Shown: positions 57,771 to 63,951 of the stretch, piece by piece
Layout of the letters: every line of letters begins with the position of its first letter
Position numbering within the stretch: the first letter of the stretch is position 1
Source of the DNA: a candidate division FCPU426 bacterium
GTDB lineage: Bacteria > Oederibacteriota > Muellerivitia > Muellerivitales > Muellerivitaceae
DNA: 64,000 nt
Reading direction: 5' to 3'
NCBI GenBank assembly: GCA_963847625.1
Contig: CAWKAR010000025.1
Span: 119,926-183,925 of the forward strand
Program-made: the position numbers and the translations under genes
The notes under the pieces: model-generated
The model's database searches: none
Told to the model about the DNA's origin: nothing
Seen by the model: only the letters and a program-made list of their open reading frames with translations

Positions 57771-58604
57771 TTACGCACCCTCCAGAGCTTTGGAAAGTTC
57801 GATCAACTTCGCCAAATCCAATTGTTCCCCGCGAATTCGGGGGTTCAGGCCCAATCTTTCCAAGGCCTGGGCCGATTGTTCCTGGGATTTGCCAAGGGAT
57901 TTCAACGAATTCGACAACATCTTGCGGCGGCTTTGGAAAATAGCCCGGACCAAGGCGAACAACCTTTTTTCACCCGGCTCATCCAGCGGCAATTCGGTTT
58001 TAACCTCAAGCTCAATGAAAGCCGAGTCCACTTTCGGCCTGGGACGGAAACACCGGGCCGGAACGTCCAACAGCATTTTGGGACTAGAGTAGTATTGGGC
58101 GCATATCGTGAGGGCCCCATAAGCTTTGGTGCCTGGCGCCGCAACCAGCCTGGCGGCTACCTCCTTCTGCACCATCAGATAAATTTTCCGGATGACACCA
58201 TGGTATTGGGCCAAGAAGCGTGTCATCAATGATGTCGTGAGGTAATAGGGGATATTACCCGCGACCGTGATTTTTCCGGGCGCGGGGGGAGCCAGTGGAA
58301 TCAAATCCAGCTTGAGGATATCGGCTTTCACCAGGCTCAAACCCGGTGAATCCTTGAACCGCTTTTCCAGCATGGCGAATAGCTTGTGGTCCACCTCCAC
58401 AACTGTCATGGTCCTTCCCTTCGCCGCCAACCGCTCGGTCAGGGTGCCGTAACCGCCCCCCACCTCCAGCAACAGGTCCCCTTCGGGACATTGGATAACC
58501 TCGTCGATTTGGTTCAGGATTCCGGAATCTGTCAGAAAATTCTGGCCTGCTGATTTCCGCGGGCGGTAGGAATATTCCTTGAAAAGCTGGGTGATCCGGC
58601 TCAT
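57771..58604 (-). CDS. rsmA: 16S rRNA adenine dimethyltransferase KsgA
   Basis: GQNFL, LEVGGG.G.LT, GNIPY, MVQKEVA.R, F.PRPKVDSA. Confidence 0.94.
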   Translation of the reverse strand: MSRITQLFKEYSYRPRKSAGQNFLTDSGILNQIDEVIQCPEGDLLLEVGGGYGTLTERLAAKGRTMTVVEVDHKLFAMLEKRFKDSPGLSLVKADILKLDLIPLAPPAPGKITVAGNIPYYLTTSLMTRFLAQYHGVIRKIYLMVQKEVAARLVAAPGTKAYGALTICAQYYSSPKMLLDVPARCFRPRPKVDSAFIELEVKTELPLDEPGEKRLFALVRAIFQSRRKMLSNSLKSLGKSQEQSAQALERLGLNPRIRGEQLDLAKLIELSKALEGA

Positions 58605-59653
58605 CGGGTTTTCATGGCCAGGTCTTCGGCCATGCGGATGGCGGAAACCATGCTGGAGGGGTCGGCGATTCCCTTCCCGGCGATGTCAAAGGCGGTGCCG
58701 TGATCCGGCAAGGTCCGGATAAAGGGTAGGCCCAGGGTCAGGTTGACGCCGGTTTCAAAAACCGCCAGCTTGAAGGGGATCAACCCCTGGTCGTGGTACA
58801 TGCAAAGCACCGCGTCGTATTTTCCCTTGGAGGCCCAGTAATAAAGCGTGTCGGGGGGATGCGGGCCGGAGACGTTCCAACCCTTTCGCCGGGCAGCCGC
58901 CACCACCGGTTTCAGGACCCGGATTTCCTCATTTCCAAAAGCCCCGTTTTCCCCCGCATGGGGATTCAAACCCGCCACGGCGATCCGGGGGTTCTGGATG
59001 CCGAACCATCGAGTCATAGTCTTTTGCGTCAGCTCCAGCTTCTCCCAAACTTTGGGCCGGGTCACTTCGGACAGGCTTTCCTTCAGGGAGACATGGATGG
59101 ATTGCAGGACGATCCTGAAAGGGCCTCCCGCCATCATCATGGCGAAGTTTTTGGTTTTGGAAAGGTGGGCCAGCAATTCGGTATGCCCGGGAAATACACA
59201 CCCAGCCTTATGAATGGCTTCCTTGTGGATGGGGGCCGTCACCAGGGCGGAAGCTTTTCCTTCTAGGGCAAGTTTTGCCCCCTTGAGGATATAATGAACC
59301 GCCGCTGTTCCGGAAGAGGCTGAAATTTTACCCCACCGGGCATTTTCGGCCCCGCCCAGGTCCAAGACTCCCACTTTCCCCTTGGAAACAGTTAGGGGGC
59401 TGTCTTCTTCCAAAGGTAAAAGGGGCAGTTTGACCTTGAACCGCTTGGCGCAGGAAACCAGGTAACGGTAATCCCCCACCAAACAATATTGGCTACGGGA
59501 CGCTTTAATAATTTTCGCTAAAGCCTTGAGCGCAACTTCAGGTCCTACTCCAGCGGGGTCTCCGATTGAAATAGCAACAATTTGTTTGCTGTTAATTTTG
59601 AATTTTGAATTATGAATTATGAATTGATGTGAAAAAGCTTTGCTTTTTTTCAT
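58601..59653 (-). CDS. pdxA: 4-hydroxythreonine-4-phosphate dehydrogenase
   Basis: GDPAGVGPE, GHTE, GLNPHAGE, MYHDQGL, PDHGTAFDIAG; N-terminal extension runs through the heptamer array. Confidence 0.94.
   Translation of the reverse strand: MKKSKAFSHQFIIHNSKFKINSKQIVAISIGDPAGVGPEVALKALAKIIKASRSQYCLVGDYRYLVSCAKRFKVKLPLLPLEEDSPLTVSKGKVGVLDLGGAENARWGKISASSGTAAVHYILKGAKLALEGKASALVTAPIHKEAIHKAGCVFPGHTELLAHLSKTKNFAMMMAGGPFRIVLQSIHVSLKESLSEVTRPKVWEKLELTQKTMTRWFGIQNPRIAVAGLNPHAGENGAFGNEEIRVLKPVVAAARRKGWNVSGPHPPDTLYYWASKGKYDAVLCMYHDQGLIPFKLAVFETGVNLTLGLPFIRTLPDHGTAFDIAGKGIADPSSMVSAIRMAEDLAMKTR
59594..59629. repeat. Heptamer array (AATT[T/A]TG)n, left arm of a 36-bp inverted repeat
   Basis: AATTTTG AATTTTG AATTATG AATTATG AATTGATG. 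Confidence 0.85.
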
Positions 59654-60006
59654 GATTTTTCAACCGTCGTTTTAACAATGGACGTTAGGATTTTTATTAT
59701 TTCCTTTATGTCACTAATTTGTGACGAGTAGTTTCCCTCAACTAACTGAGATTCTTGAATCAATCGGAGCCAATATAGGGTCTCCCGGGCTTCTTTCAAG
59801 GCAATCGTCATCTTCGAGGCGAAATCTTTTCGGCTTGCGGCCGCTAATGCTTCTTCAATGTTTGCTCCGATGCTTGTTCCAGACCTGAATAATTGCTTGG
59901 ACGCGAGAAACTCAGAGGTTCTTTGAAGTGTTTTACAAAGTTTGACAATCTTTAATGCAAAATTGAAGGATTTCGTTTGAATTATATTTTGTTTTTGGGC
60001 CATCAA
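59650..60006 (-). CDS. Four-helix-bundle protein (23S rRNA intervening-sequence protein / bAvd-like family)
   Basis: KSFNFAL.I, KQLFRSGTSIGANIEEA, SRKDF..K..IALKEARET.YWL. Confidence 0.9.
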   Translation of the reverse strand: MMAQKQNIIQTKSFNFALKIVKLCKTLQRTSEFLASKQLFRSGTSIGANIEEALAAASRKDFASKMTIALKEARETLYWLRLIQESQLVEGNYSSQISDIKEIIKILTSIVKTTVEKS

Positions 60007-60040
60007 TAAAATGTCCTGATTTTCGCATTTTGAAAATCTT

Positions 60041-60076
60041 CATCAATTTATAATTCAAAATTCATAATTCATAATT
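60041..60076. repeat. Heptamer array (CA[T/A]AATT)n, right arm of a 36-bp inverted repeat
   Basis: CATCAATT TATAATT CAAAATT CATAATT CATAATT; 32/36 match to the reverse complement of 59594-59629. Confidence 0.85.
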
Positions 60077-60081
60077 GCAGT

Positions 60082-61410
60082 TTATAGTACCTTCGCCGCG
60101 AGTGCGGCCAGCGGGGAGCGCTCGCTCTTGGACAGGGTGATGTGCCCGAACATTTCATTCCCCTTGAACCTTTCGGCCAGGTACACGATGCCGTTGGAGG
60201 AGGAATCCAGGTAGGGGTTGTCAATCTGGTAGGGGTCCCCCGTAAGGATGATCTTGGTTCCCACGCCGGCGCGGGAGACGATGGTCTTGATCTCGTGGGG
60301 GGTGAGGTTCTGGGCCTCGTCCACGATCATGAACTGCTTGGGGATGGACCGGCCCCGGATATAGGTGAGCGCCTCCAACTCCAACTTGTGGGAATCCAGC
60401 AGGTATTGGACCTTATCGTCCACGTCCTCCGCCTCGTTTTGCAGGTGGCCCTTATCCAGGATGAATTCCAGGTTGTCAAAAATGGGCTGCATCCAGTTCG
60501 TTAGCTTTTCGTCCTTGGATCCCGGAAGGAAACCAATATCCTTGCCCAGGGGCACGATGGGCCGGGAAACCAAAATCCGGCGGTATTTTTTCTCGTCCAT
60601 CGTTTTCAGGAGCCCCGCCGCCAGGGCCAAAAGTGTTTTCCCGGTGCCCGCCGACCCAACAAGGGTCACTATGGAAATGCGGTCGTTCAAAAGCAGGTTC
60701 AGGGCGAAGTGCTGTTCCAGGTTCAGGGCCTTGATCCCCCAGGCCTCCGGGTCCTTGAACCAGAGGGCTTGGACTTCCTTCAGGCCCTCGCGGTAAACGC
60801 CCCGGGCCGACTTTGTCTCGTGGATGTCGCTTTTCAGGAGAAGGAACTGGTTCTCATATAAAACTTTATCGCCTAGACGGCCCTGAAGGGAAAGTTTTCC
60901 AGCCTTGTAGAATTCGTCGATTTCGGCGTCACCGACCGTCAGGGAGACCCACCCGGCGTAAAACTCGTCGATGTTGACCTTGTTCGTCTCGTAATCCTCA
61001 GCCTCCACGCCCAGCGCGTCCGCCTTGACCCGCACATTGATGTCCTTGGTGACGAAATGGACGTTCTCCCCCTTTTGCTTCAGGGCCAGGGCAATGCCGA
61101 TGATGTTGTTGTCGATCTTCATGCCCGATAGGGAGGGCGGCAGGTGGCCGTTGGGCGTGCTGATGTCCACCCTCAAGAGGCCCCCGTTAGGAAGAGGCAC
61201 ACCCTCGTGCAAATTGCCCTTCAGGCGCAGATCATCCAATAACCGCGCCACCTCGCGGGCGTTTCGCCCCCGCTCATCCTGGTACTTCTTGAAGGTATCC
61301 AGCTCTTCAATGACGCCCAGGGGTATGACGACGATATTGTCCGCGAAGGACTCGAGGGCCTTCGGGTTGTGGATCAAAACGTTGGTGTCCAATACGAAAG
61401 TTTTTTTCAT
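60082..61410 (-). CDS. PhoH-family ATPase with N-terminal PIN domain (PhoH2/YlaK-like)
   Basis: FVLDTNVL PIN motif, GSAGTGKT, YIRGRS, DEAQNLT, GDP.QID; start set at MKKTFVLD. Confidence 0.92.
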   Translation of the reverse strand: MKKTFVLDTNVLIHNPKALESFADNIVVIPLGVIEELDTFKKYQDERGRNAREVARLLDDLRLKGNLHEGVPLPNGGLLRVDISTPNGHLPPSLSGMKIDNNIIGIALALKQKGENVHFVTKDINVRVKADALGVEAEDYETNKVNIDEFYAGWVSLTVGDAEIDEFYKAGKLSLQGRLGDKVLYENQFLLLKSDIHETKSARGVYREGLKEVQALWFKDPEAWGIKALNLEQHFALNLLLNDRISIVTLVGSAGTGKTLLALAAGLLKTMDEKKYRRILVSRPIVPLGKDIGFLPGSKDEKLTNWMQPIFDNLEFILDKGHLQNEAEDVDDKVQYLLDSHKLELEALTYIRGRSIPKQFMIVDEAQNLTPHEIKTIVSRAGVGTKIILTGDPYQIDNPYLDSSSNGIVYLAERFKGNEMFGHITLSKSERSPLAALAAKVL

Positions 61411-62123
61411 GGGACATGGGCCTCCGGGGGGATGGGATGCGGCTTGAACCAATGAAACGCGCCAAGGGACAGCCGCCAGGACCATTGGAACGTTTCAGGA
61501 AATGCGCGAGAAAGGGGTAATACTTGCGGCCAGATGAGTGAGGTCAGTAGCATTAAAACAATCATATTTCCAGCCAAAATGAAAATCAAGGAAAACGCCC
61601 ACCCGCCCTCCTTCAAATCGGTCTGCGGGTGGGTCAAGGAATAGCCCGTCAAGGCGAGGTGGAAAGCGTAGGTGAAACCGATGAGCCCCATCAGGTAAAT
61701 CTTGAACGGCTGGGCCGCCAACAAGTATAGCCCGGCGGTAACAACGGTGTAAAAGGGGAATATGTAAGGCGCCAAACTGATGAGGACGTTGGATTTATTG
61801 ACAGTGGTCGAGCCGCCGCTCGTGGTCGCGTGGATGGCGGTGACCTTCCCGCCCATCAGGACGGCGGCTAGGGCGTGGGTCAACTCATGTGCCATGACGT
61901 GGCTTAAGATGGGCTTGTAGAGGACGAAGTGGAGGACGAGATAGGCGGCAAAACCGGTGAAAAACACCCAGGTCGTCCTTTCGGACCAGGGAAGGTGGGC
62001 GTAGGCTTTTCCCAGAACCACCGCCATCCCAAGGCACAGCCAAAGCAATAAGATCCCCAGGAGTGTTTTCAGCAGGAAAGAGGTAAGGCTCTTTTTAATC
62101 GACAATGATTCCGCCTTTTTCAT
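61407..62123 (-). CDS. Membrane metallopeptidase, M50B-like
   Basis: HELTH (HExxH) in a hydrophobic context, SLAPY, several TMs. Confidence 0.7.
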   Translation of the reverse strand: MKKAESLSIKKSLTSFLLKTLLGILLLWLCLGMAVVLGKAYAHLPWSERTTWVFFTGFAAYLVLHFVLYKPILSHVMAHELTHALAAVLMGGKVTAIHATTSGGSTTVNKSNVLISLAPYIFPFYTVVTAGLYLLAAQPFKIYLMGLIGFTYAFHLALTGYSLTHPQTDLKEGGWAFSLIFILAGNMIVLMLLTSLIWPQVLPLSRAFPETFQWSWRLSLGAFHWFKPHPIPPEAHVP

Positions 62124-62179
62124 AAAGGTACAACAACTCTATACCAACATCAAAAAGATATTACAGGGATATACCCCGA

Positions 62180-62520
62180 TGCCACCAGGAAATTGGCCTC
62201 TGCCACTAGGAAATCGGCCTATGCCGACGGTAGTTCCCGACCGTGCCGACGGTGGTTCCGATTCTACTGGGGCACCGGCCCTTTCTACCGGGCCTTCCGT
62301 CGGATTCTACTGGGGCACCAGCCCTTTCTACCGGGTCTGCGGGCAGGACCCCCGACACCTGCGAGCAGTACCCCCTGCACCTGAGGGCAGGACTCCCAGC
62401 CTCTGCGGGCAGGCCCCCCGGCACCTGCGGGCAGGACCCCAGACACCTGCGGGCAGGGTTACCGGCTTCTGCGGGCAGGACCCTCGGCCTCTGCGAGCAG
62501 GACTCCCGGCTCCTGCGGAA
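62180..62520. repeat. GC-rich non-coding array with 21-22-bp period; last part is 8 full and 1 partial 22-bp units with palindromic core CTGCGGGCAG
   Basis: Core starts at 62337, 62359, 62381, 62403, 62425, 62447, 62469, 62491, 62513; earlier TGCC-type units at 62180/62201/62222/62244 and TTCTAC-type units at 62262/62283/62305/62326. Confidence 0.9.
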
Positions 62521-62524
62521 AGCC

Positions 62525-62557
62525 AATTTTGAATTTTAAGTTTTAAATTCTGAATTG
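62525..62557. repeat. Orphan degenerate heptamer array of the same type as 59594-59629
   Basis: AATTTTG AATTTTA AGTTTTA AATTCTG AATTG. Confidence 0.6.
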
Positions 62558-62622
62558 TGGTTAGATTTCTGTATCTCAGAAATCCTCTATATTTCAATAT
62601 TTAACTATTTTCTAGTTAGTCT

Positions 62623-63951
62623 TTAATTTTCTACGATCCAACAAGGATTGTATGGGTAATAGTCGCTATCGAAATCGCGCTGCAACCCTTGGTTATCAAT
62701 ATTATTAGGACCGACGCTATAAATCAGTAATCCGTCACGATATCTCATTATTTTCAAGTTCGCCCTATCGGTGAATGGGTCCAGATAATCATCCCATTGT
62801 TTCTTGTCCAATTCCCAAACCGCATCCGGCCAGCGCTTGTGTTTTTGGCGAAACAGGCGGGCTTCATTGGCCGCGCGGGCCAAACGGCAATCGGCCACCG
62901 TCAGCAACATCATTTGGGGGTCCGGGTAATACAAATTGTCCATGATCATCCCCATGAACCAACCATGACTGCGGTAGTCGGCATCCGCCTTGTCCCAAGC
63001 CGCTTTTACTTCAGGGTAAGGTAAGGAAAAAGCATTTAATTTTTTAATTTGACCCCGATAATAGGAGGCCGCGTCAAAATTCGAAGCGAGTTTTAAGAAT
63101 AGGTCCAGGTCCATACCTTCCAAATATTGTTCACTTGCCAAGCGCTCCACCCGCAATTTTTCGCGAAAATCATTTTTTATACCTTGAGGGTCCAGTAATG
63201 CTAGAAATTCCTTTTCCGCGATGGGCGCGACCACACGAGGCAAAACTTCCCGGGCAGCTTGCAGAGTCACACGTATTCCGTAATTCCCCATCAATTCATT
63301 AAATTTTGCTTTTCTAGCCACCTCACTCAGAAACAAACCCGTTCGGAGGCTTTTAAGCGCCTCCTTCGTTTTGCCCTCTCGAACTTGTATTACAGCCCTT
63401 AAAGTCATCAACCTATTCAGGTTGTAATAACCGGAAATTGCAGGCATTTTAACTTGATAGGATGGTTGGATCGAATAATCGATCCCCCAATCCACCTTCT
63501 TTTCCTGATAAGCCTTATCCAGAAGCCGCAGGGAATCAACATGCGCTTCCAGGAGTTTCCGGGCAAAGGTAAATTCCTCCGCCGTCAATTTCCCCACCCT
63601 CATGCGGTTGAGGAATGTATTCAAGAATTCAAGTTGGCTTTTATTTTGGAAAAAATGCACAGTGCCTATAAATGTTTTTTCATACGCCGGCAAAAGAGGC
63701 CGCATGGATTCCGCATCCAAGGCTTTACGAACGTAATAAACCGCGTTCAACTCGTCCGGCACTCGTTGTGTATTCTTCGGCATTTCCAGGCTGTAACCTG
63801 CAACCTTCAATTCCAATTTGGCTTGGTTAAGTGTTCGCTTACCAACTTCCCACCAAAAATAGTAGGCCAGGAATAAGCTGGCAACATAGCCCAAAAGAAA
63901 CAGAACTAGCGCAAGCACAGTTTTGCGGGCTAAATTTTTCCGGTCACTCAC
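62623..63951 (-). CDS. Hypothetical membrane-anchored helical protein
   Basis: N-terminal TM; C-terminal DPFT...LIYSVGPN..D..G motif reminiscent of pseudopilin/GspG-like C-termini. Confidence 0.7.
   Translation of the reverse strand: MSDRKNLARKTVLALVLFLLGYVASLFLAYYFWWEVGKRTLNQAKLELKVAGYSLEMPKNTQRVPDELNAVYYVRKALDAESMRPLLPAYEKTFIGTVHFFQNKSQLEFLNTFLNRMRVGKLTAEEFTFARKLLEAHVDSLRLLDKAYQEKKVDWGIDYSIQPSYQVKMPAISGYYNLNRLMTLRAVIQVREGKTKEALKSLRTGLFLSEVARKAKFNELMGNYGIRVTLQAAREVLPRVVAPIAEKEFLALLDPQGIKNDFREKLRVERLASEQYLEGMDLDLFLKLASNFDAASYYRGQIKKLNAFSLPYPEVKAAWDKADADYRSHGWFMGMIMDNLYYPDPQMMLLTVADCRLARAANEARLFRQKHKRWPDAVWELDKKQWDDYLDPFTDRANLKIMRYRDGLLIYSVGPNNIDNQGLQRDFDSDYYPYNPCWIVEN

Follow-up and report, generated by a model that had tools for sequence, protein, structure and literature searches.

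The window (the whole stretch of 64,000 nucleotides that was analyzed, from the host genome G000) contains a repeat-delimited cassette of 483 nt between a gene for a PIN_4 and PhoH domain protein and pdxA (Table 1). Each end of the cassette is a 36-nt arm composed of five 7-nt units; the two arms are mutually inverted, complementary at 89% of positions (32/36), and separated by 411 nt, and the inverted five-heptamer arrays described in an earlier note on this DNA were reproduced in full. The upstream PIN_4 and PhoH protein (PhoH2-like) scores below the NF053827 cutoff. The gene enclosed by the arms can start at TTG (60006; 118 aa) or ATG (60003; 117 aa). Its GC content (0.39) is lower than that of pdxA (0.56) and of the phoH gene (0.57), as is its GC3 (0.40 versus 0.79 and 0.66 for the flanking genes), in agreement with the description of a low-GC four-helix-bundle gene between GC-richer neighbors. 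The product matches TIGR02436 (104.2 bits versus a cutoff of 24; E 4e-30) and PF05635 (83.1 versus 33.8; E 2e-23), which places it, as had been proposed, in the family encoded inside 23S rRNA intervening sequences (IVSs). Neither the list of open reading frames nor profile searches revealed a transposase gene inside the cassette, and its description as a transposase-free, repeat-delimited unit stands. Its position between the phoH-like gene and pdxA also stands, with the correction that the 3' arm is not intergenic and instead forms the in-frame start of pdxA.

Table 1. Features of the cassette and its surroundings (positions in the window)
Feature	Position	Strand	Remarks
Whole cassette	59594..60076		outer end of one arm to outer end of the other
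5' arm	60041..60076	-	five AATT-anchored 7-nt units; begins 5 nt past the phoH2 stop codon
Inner hairpin	60018..60038	-	just inside the 5' arm
Four-helix-bundle gene (TIGR02436/PF05635, S23p family)	59650..60006	-	profile matches
Small hairpin	59632..59648	-	between the cassette gene stop and the 3' arm
3' arm	59594..59629	-	five inverted units; in frame, PdxA codons 9-20
pdxA (host gene)	58601..59653	-	start ATG overlaps the cassette gene stop (ATGA), inside the loop
PIN_4 + PhoH (PhoH2-like) host gene	60082..61410	-	upstream of the cassette; Pfam/profile matches
Solo five-unit arm plus inner hairpin	62525..62584	+	cassette-arm family, gene-less; pattern match

Inspection of the arm ends by eye revealed no evident target site duplication, the empty sites of relatives being too diverged to define the exact junction. 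An Rfam scan of 58500-63000 returned a single chance match (E 0.47) and none that was credible, and a promoter and terminator scan (5 promoter-like and 2 terminator-like matches) was uninformative. The type of inner hairpin that accompanies the 5' arm is also found behind the arm in 20 further pattern matches in G000, gene-less elements included, and a motif resembling the small hairpin next to the 3' arm recurs where the site is filled in G001, G006, G013, G014, and G040.

The cassette protein is basic (pI 9.7) and has an invariant core across 91 sequences, and pN is far below pS, indicating that its gene is under purifying selection. An AF2 model built from the alignment (pLDDT 93) contains four helices and supersedes a poor single-sequence model (pLDDT 72). 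The closest structure is 2RLD (50% identity, TM 0.90), which has five chains; 2GSC gave a TM of 0.72. These are the S23 family structural genomics proteins BT_0352 and Xcc0516, respectively, whose PDB entries carry no assigned function; passages of PMC4990558 call Xcc0516 a homopentamer. From the five chains of 2RLD and the Xcc0516 pentamer, the cassette protein is predicted to form a homopentameric ring. The relationship to the Avd protein of diversity-generating retroelements (DGRs) that the earlier note put forward was found, weakly, at the level of the fold and not in the sequence: Avd chain 8UB8_C aligns with a TM of 0.77, but with 14% identity and an E value of 0.16, ranking below unrelated helical bundles, and Avd was absent among the matches listed for the pLDDT 72 model. 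DGR Avd (PDB 4DWL, 8UB8) shares the basic four-helix-bundle fold with the predicted cassette model but differs from it in sequence (14 to 15% identity; nonsignificant Foldseek E values of 0.16 to 0.31) and in that no reverse transcriptase (RT) gene lies in or beside the cassette. Avd is a pentameric, basic, RNA-binding barrel that is described as similar to S23 proteins in passages of bioRxiv 10.1101/2023.10.23.563531.

Arms at homologous loci and occupancy of the phoH2-pdxA junction

Homologous loci were taken as the best 80 of 479 confirmed loci, from which three with short flanks and two with runs of N were left out. Both arms, in inverted orientation, were found in 54 of the remaining 75 loci, compared with 0 of 281 control window pairs, which bears out the expectation that homologs generally carry inverted heptamer flanks. 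Pairing was better between the arms of one locus (18.6) than between arms swapped among loci (11.4), with 0 of 10,000 permutations as good. Collapsing the loci by shared neighbors, a step made partly by hand, gave 36 independent sites; both arms are present at 23 of these and one arm or more at 33. The 76 downstream neighbors fall into 38 clusters across 14 named phyla. Five units is the mode among the homolog arms, and right arms with 6 to 10 units occur at 9 of the 75 loci. Among the two-armed loci, this one included (n = 55), a same-strand stop codon lies no more than 30 nt from the 5' arm in 37 and a gene follows downstream on the same strand in 51; in 38 of those 51, the first downstream start is 1 to 18 nt beyond the 3' arm.

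In the host family, three recurrent junctions hold cassettes: phoH2-pdxA and two others, presumably livG-livF and pyrC-carA as labeled from their translations. The cassettes at these junctions encode separate protein groups, each with its own heptamer unit, so that the arm unit tracks the protein clade. More distant subfamilies carry yet other heptamer units. The group with AGTTAGG-type arms sits at several different junctions, which indicates that new sites have been reached over time. In the search with the window protein, 14 of 30 loci had no match; L133 was treated in a separate comparison, and the 13 loci inspected directly had other heptamer units in all cases except L129, where no arms were seen, and L134, where the upstream side was masked. 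Two rows on long branches, L174 (a spurious BLAST pick) and L175 (another subfamily), were left out of the comparison of arms with clades.

The phoH2-pdxA junction was assembled in 29 related genomes, of which 6 contain the cassette, 15 are empty, the state that the earlier note had suggested looking for in close relatives, and 8 contain other inserts. The filled sites fall in five host clades, several of which have nonfilled sisters, and 5 changes are needed on the host tree. At fourfold sites, G000 and G001 differ by 0.13 in the cassette gene, compared with 0.35 in phoH and 0.48 in pdxA (Fisher p 0.0045 and 1e-5, respectively, with counts back-calculated from rounded proportions). The cassette protein of G040 is 75% identical to that of G000 and 56% identical to that of G006; its host PdxA is 78% identical to that of G006 and 70% identical to that of G000. 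In trees, the G040 cassette protein groups with G000/G001 (95/93) and the G040 host groups with G006 (100/99), and an AU test on the cargo protein tree rejected a pairing of G040 with G006 (p 0.00025); AU tests on cargo DNA (p 0.070), on host DNA (p 0.073), and on the protein pairing of G013 with G014 (p 0.072) were not significant. The low synonymous divergence and the protein tree together suggest lateral exchange of the cassette, the DNA tree tests being borderline.

It is unlikely that the cassette is passive cargo, that is, an old insertion inherited vertically and repeatedly deleted, whose arms belong to a REP/REPIN-like family that was spread by an unrelated enzyme and goes unrecognized by the protein. 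The proteins at the phoH2-pdxA site do form one clade (87/86), and G041 retains a cassette-type PdxA N terminus behind a different gene, from which it follows that loss also occurs; both observations fit a single old insertion followed by repeated loss. DNA incongruence tests at p 0.07 and a count of about 100 arrays to one gene in G000 are further points for passive cargo. Such a history is harder to reconcile with a synonymous divergence that is low relative to the flanks, with the outcome of the protein AU test, with a link between arm and gene that extends over some 36 sites in 14 phyla, and with an arm unit that follows the protein clade; moreover, no Y1/RAYT gene lies near any array in G000.

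G000, G001, and G040 share the 3' arm's outer 34 nt without a difference, despite saturation at synonymous sites between the G000 and G040 open reading frames, and between-genome identity drops right at the outer end of this arm; together, these observations argue that the 3' arm is constrained. Lack of constraint on the PdxA linker may account for part of the drop, and no sharp edge is seen on the phoH side.

The junction also behaves as an insertion hot spot in its own right, the 8 genomes of 29 with other inserts holding other hairpin elements or small unrelated open reading frames (L088, L098, L099, L101, L145, L146, L147, and L149). A 2.4-kb metagenome contig (run X2, record 10) spans phoH2 and the 5' arm and connects, through joints of the same depth, to portions of the gene, of the 3' arm, and of pdxA; it probably represents a further relative whose site is filled.

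Predicted pairing of the arms in the transcript

A predicted fold of 531 nt in the mRNA sense pairs the arms with each other (MFE -120.7, z -3.8, 0 of 100 shuffles as low), and in a 1,101-nt context the arm pairs have a mean probability of 0.82, consistent with the proposal that the transcript could form a long stem with the gene in its loop. The terminal inverted repeats, predicted to pair into a stem around an open reading frame, and the sporadic occupancy of the orthologous site are features of an IVS; the location between two protein-coding genes, outside an rRNA gene, is not. An rRNA IVS is cut out by RNase III and the rRNA ends stay unjoined. In G000 the sole in-frame ATG, GTG, or TTG upstream of the conserved GDP motif of PdxA is at 59653, inside the loop. 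The same arrangement, a pdxA start in the loop and an arm that is coding, is found in 5 of the 6 filled genomes, where alternative starts lie 1 to 3 codons before GDP; the exception is G013, in which pdxA has a start of its own beyond the arm. Cleavage of the stem would cut pdxA off from its start codon, and the translation of the 3' arm as the start of pdxA likewise argues against a harmless excision of the IVS type from the mRNA. Silent excision of this kind, which the earlier note had entertained, is unlikely at this locus, and the arm mismatches speak against it as well: over 58 loci, 36 G-U and 50 A-C mismatches were counted on the mRNA strand (p 0.16), with no G-U preference.

A broader role in RNA processing, as the earlier note proposed, would have paired arms in the transcript form a stem for RNase III to cut, freeing an RNA of about 430 to 480 nt and uncoupling or destabilizing the downstream cistron; this also seems improbable. 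The predicted stem is what such an element would require, and in Coxiella burnetii the 5' arm of the 23S IVS is cut by RNase III where its first GACAGAT heptamer starts, according to passages of PMC4990558. Unit order is mirrored between the arms somewhat more than expected by chance overall (10 of 12 sites; Wilcoxon p 0.027), whereas at this locus the order is not optimized for pairing (p 0.32) and the stem is mismatched at 4 of 36 positions. With the downstream start located outside the 3' arm in most of the two-armed loci, a cut would spare that start; here and at all but one of the other five filled phoH2-pdxA sites, however, it would not, the start being in the loop and the arm coding, and the absence of a G-U preference on the mRNA strand is a further point against such a role.

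Dispersed arrays and the search for a mobilizing enzyme

The arrays bracket the gene as originally described but are not specific to it. There are 110 array loci in G000 (139 strand matches, compared with 7 in shuffled DNA), and only one clear PF05635 gene for about 100 dispersed arrays; a weak second PF05635 match (L002) was set aside as having no arms. Runs of phased anchors in G000 number 347 with three units, 57 with four, 105 with five, and 4 with six, compared with 287, 7, 0, and 0 in a shuffled-DNA control, and the strand matches found over 32 genomes of the order, quasi-palindromic arrays being counted twice, comprise 1,985 with five anchors and 123 with six. The sharp peak at five indicates a site fixed at five units, not a slippage repeat. 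Gene-less elements of about 90 to 100 nt, consisting of an arm, an inner hairpin, and an inverted arm (for example, C27:183579-183667 and C57:101590-101687 in G000), have both arms and inner hairpin in common with the cassette. Arm-to-arm joints seen in three DNA sequencing runs (small shares; 80% likeness) enclose short unrelated sequence and were attributed to gene-less hairpins of other loci or other organisms, not to excision of the cassette.

A portable posttranscriptional regulator, whose ring binds five-unit arrays in many mRNAs at stop/start junctions, whose own arms serve autoregulation, and whose mobility is secondary, is an even slighter prospect. Of 99 arrays in G000, 23 have a gene of at least 150 aa within 100 nt of their outer side, and 16 of these 23 lie behind a same-strand stop codon. 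Arrays are also more numerous in the 22 genomes with a TIGR02436 gene than in the 9 without one (median 71.5 versus 15, related genomes not being independent), and for TAACTGA heptamers, which are dispersed upstream of start codons, a mobile repeat-binding protein has been proposed (passages of PMC4679880). Regulation by the protein is difficult to square with the absence of a TIGR02436 match from 9 of 31 genomes of the family (completeness of 90% or more in 5 of the 9), or with arrays that are also placed within open reading frames and in regions rich in toxin-antitoxin genes, which do not form a coherent regulon.

Searches for a Y1 transposase, an RT, and an integron integrase revealed no mobilizing enzyme linked to the arrays in G000. 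The three Y1 (HUH) transposase genes, considered as candidates of the REPIN-RAYT or IS200/IS605 type, lie more than 45 kb from any array and have different ends. A DGR was rejected because the two RT genes of G000 are on other contigs without an array and the cassette neighbors are phoH2 and pdxA, and an integron cassette was rejected because no TIGR02249 match above the cutoff was found in G000. IS110 family A (three copies) inserts at GAATT within heptamer-like arrays; it leaves no ends in the cassette and was read as a parasite of the arrays, not as a mobilizer. The single GxxExxY gene (C49:65153-65494) was set aside, being bracketed by a different, non-heptamer inverted hairpin element; copies of that flanking element also adjoin many heptamer arms in C3, C21, C26, and C34. 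Y1 transposase genes at C24:100290 and C39:22987 are nested beside copies of IS110 family B, and the one on C24 is flanked by two inverted IS110 copies.

A candidate class of transposase-free cassettes

Among described elements, the cassette resembles the IVSs of 23S rRNA that bear open reading frames (Coxiella burnetii, Leptospira), which, in passages of PMC4990558, encode a PF05635 protein in the loop of an inverted repeat, carry heptamers in the 5' arm, and measure 428 to 444 nt (483 nt for the cassette). The Coxiella example contains an S23p open reading frame and a 28-bp stem with GACAGAT heptamers (PMC4990558). Unlike these IVSs as so described, the cassette lies in a protein-coding operon, has five-unit arrays in both arms, and has a 3' arm that is translated as the start of pdxA, and its gene is under purifying selection, whereas the Coxiella IVS open reading frame is reported in the same source to be decaying. 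The cassette is comparable to an open reading frame-bearing IVS that has moved out of rRNA, although it does not share the rRNA location that defines one.

REP, REPIN, and BIME hairpins, with which RAYT proteins are associated, are short palindromes. The dispersed arrays are like them in their number (about 100 short intergenic copies) and in often forming convergent, hairpin-forming pairs near gene ends; the cassette arms differ in being phased five-unit arrays with no linked Y1 transposase. Dispersed heptamers have also been described in the form of GGGAATC inverted pairs (passages of PMC4692102), and in that paper and PMC4679880 terms for a four-helix-bundle gene had no match. S23p family genes have been found elsewhere, with 18 of them between cas genes in a passage of PMC3936711 that does not mention arms and others, in CPR bacteria, spread among rRNA insertion sites (passages of bioRxiv 10.1101/2024.02.27.582315). 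In the literature covered, which consisted of main texts and few subscription papers, heptamers together with an S23p gene were found only for the Coxiella 23S IVS, and no account of four-helix-bundle cassettes with heptamer arms in operons came to light.

The explanation that we favor, and consider moderately probable, is that of a site-preferring mobile cassette that moves between related genomes and whose predicted pentameric ring would bind the five-unit arms; of its two parts, the mobility is better supported than the binding. Points that count against it are the borderline DNA tree tests, the homolog arms with more than five units, the absence of a linked mobilizing enzyme in G000, and G010, which is 97% complete and has 40 five-anchor matches and zero TIGR02436 matches. 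A cassette of this kind would rely on host transcription and be tolerated by inserting just behind a stop codon, in this case giving pdxA a coupled start. The five subunits may match the five arm units, each subunit engaging one 7-nt unit. Single-stranded RNA or DNA would be the most plausible substrate, a 7-bp spacing not being cofacial on B-DNA; in TRAP, repeats wrap around a protein ring. A ring on the arms would hold both ends together and mark the unit, and strand transfer would be supplied by host recombination or by an enzyme acting in trans, none having been found in G000. Spread to the same site would likely proceed through homology in the flanking genes, as has been proposed for rRNA IVSs, with new sites gained rarely, and internal deletion would likely leave gene-less arm-hairpin-arm elements and solo arms, which would make up the roughly 100 dispersed copies.

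More tentatively, and with a chance somewhat short of even, the S23p family could provide end recognition for an undescribed and widespread class of mobile cassettes without a transposase, in which the ring reads the five-unit arm and ring and arm coevolve. The rRNA IVSs would then be a special case in 23S rRNA, the heptamer repeats of many genomes would be gene-less offspring, and the DGR Avd would be a domesticated relative. This proposal would tie an orphan protein family, with structures solved and function unassigned, to the long-noted and unexplained heptamer repeats of bacterial genomes, and the correspondence between a five-unit arm and a five-subunit ring is simple and cheap to test by binding. 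What the present locus adds is a 3' arm that has become the translated start of pdxA and one junction that is filled or empty across a family, with signs of lateral exchange.

Several minor features accompany the arrays. GC-rich imperfect tandem repeats at 62280-62520 of the window directly abut the solo arm at 62525, and comparable GC-rich runs lie upstream of arms at C27:181866 and C27:182351. Six similar-looking open reading frames in G000 contain five-unit arrays within the frame, mostly in reverse orientation (C3:22629-27833, C13:2510-3583, C34:105409-107340, C37:144-1682, C45:1537-3384, and C45:76490-78043); a Pfam search with two of these returned no match. A group of large open reading frames (about 940 to 1,330 aa) with similar N termini carries in-frame arrays of the AATTAGG/AGTTAGG type (C28:36295-39792, C28:131216-135211, C28:142741-145557, C45:71256-74366, and C60:59024-62113), and an IS110 copy at C30:41066 interrupts a gene resembling them at an array of this type. 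The densest array region (L155 and L156, C3:5500-42000), with more than 25 arrays, is crowded with small toxin-antitoxin genes (ParE, HicA/HicB, and PIN) and also contains three AAA_14-DUF4143 genes, IS110, and a polysaccharide export gene with an internal array. A repeat that translates to a YQPQ-like motif is often found behind heptamer arms (C3:6220, C3:9771, C3:148949, C57:101471, and C37:1714 onward), and at C3:148917-149309 it occupies the loop of an arm-hairpin-arm element.
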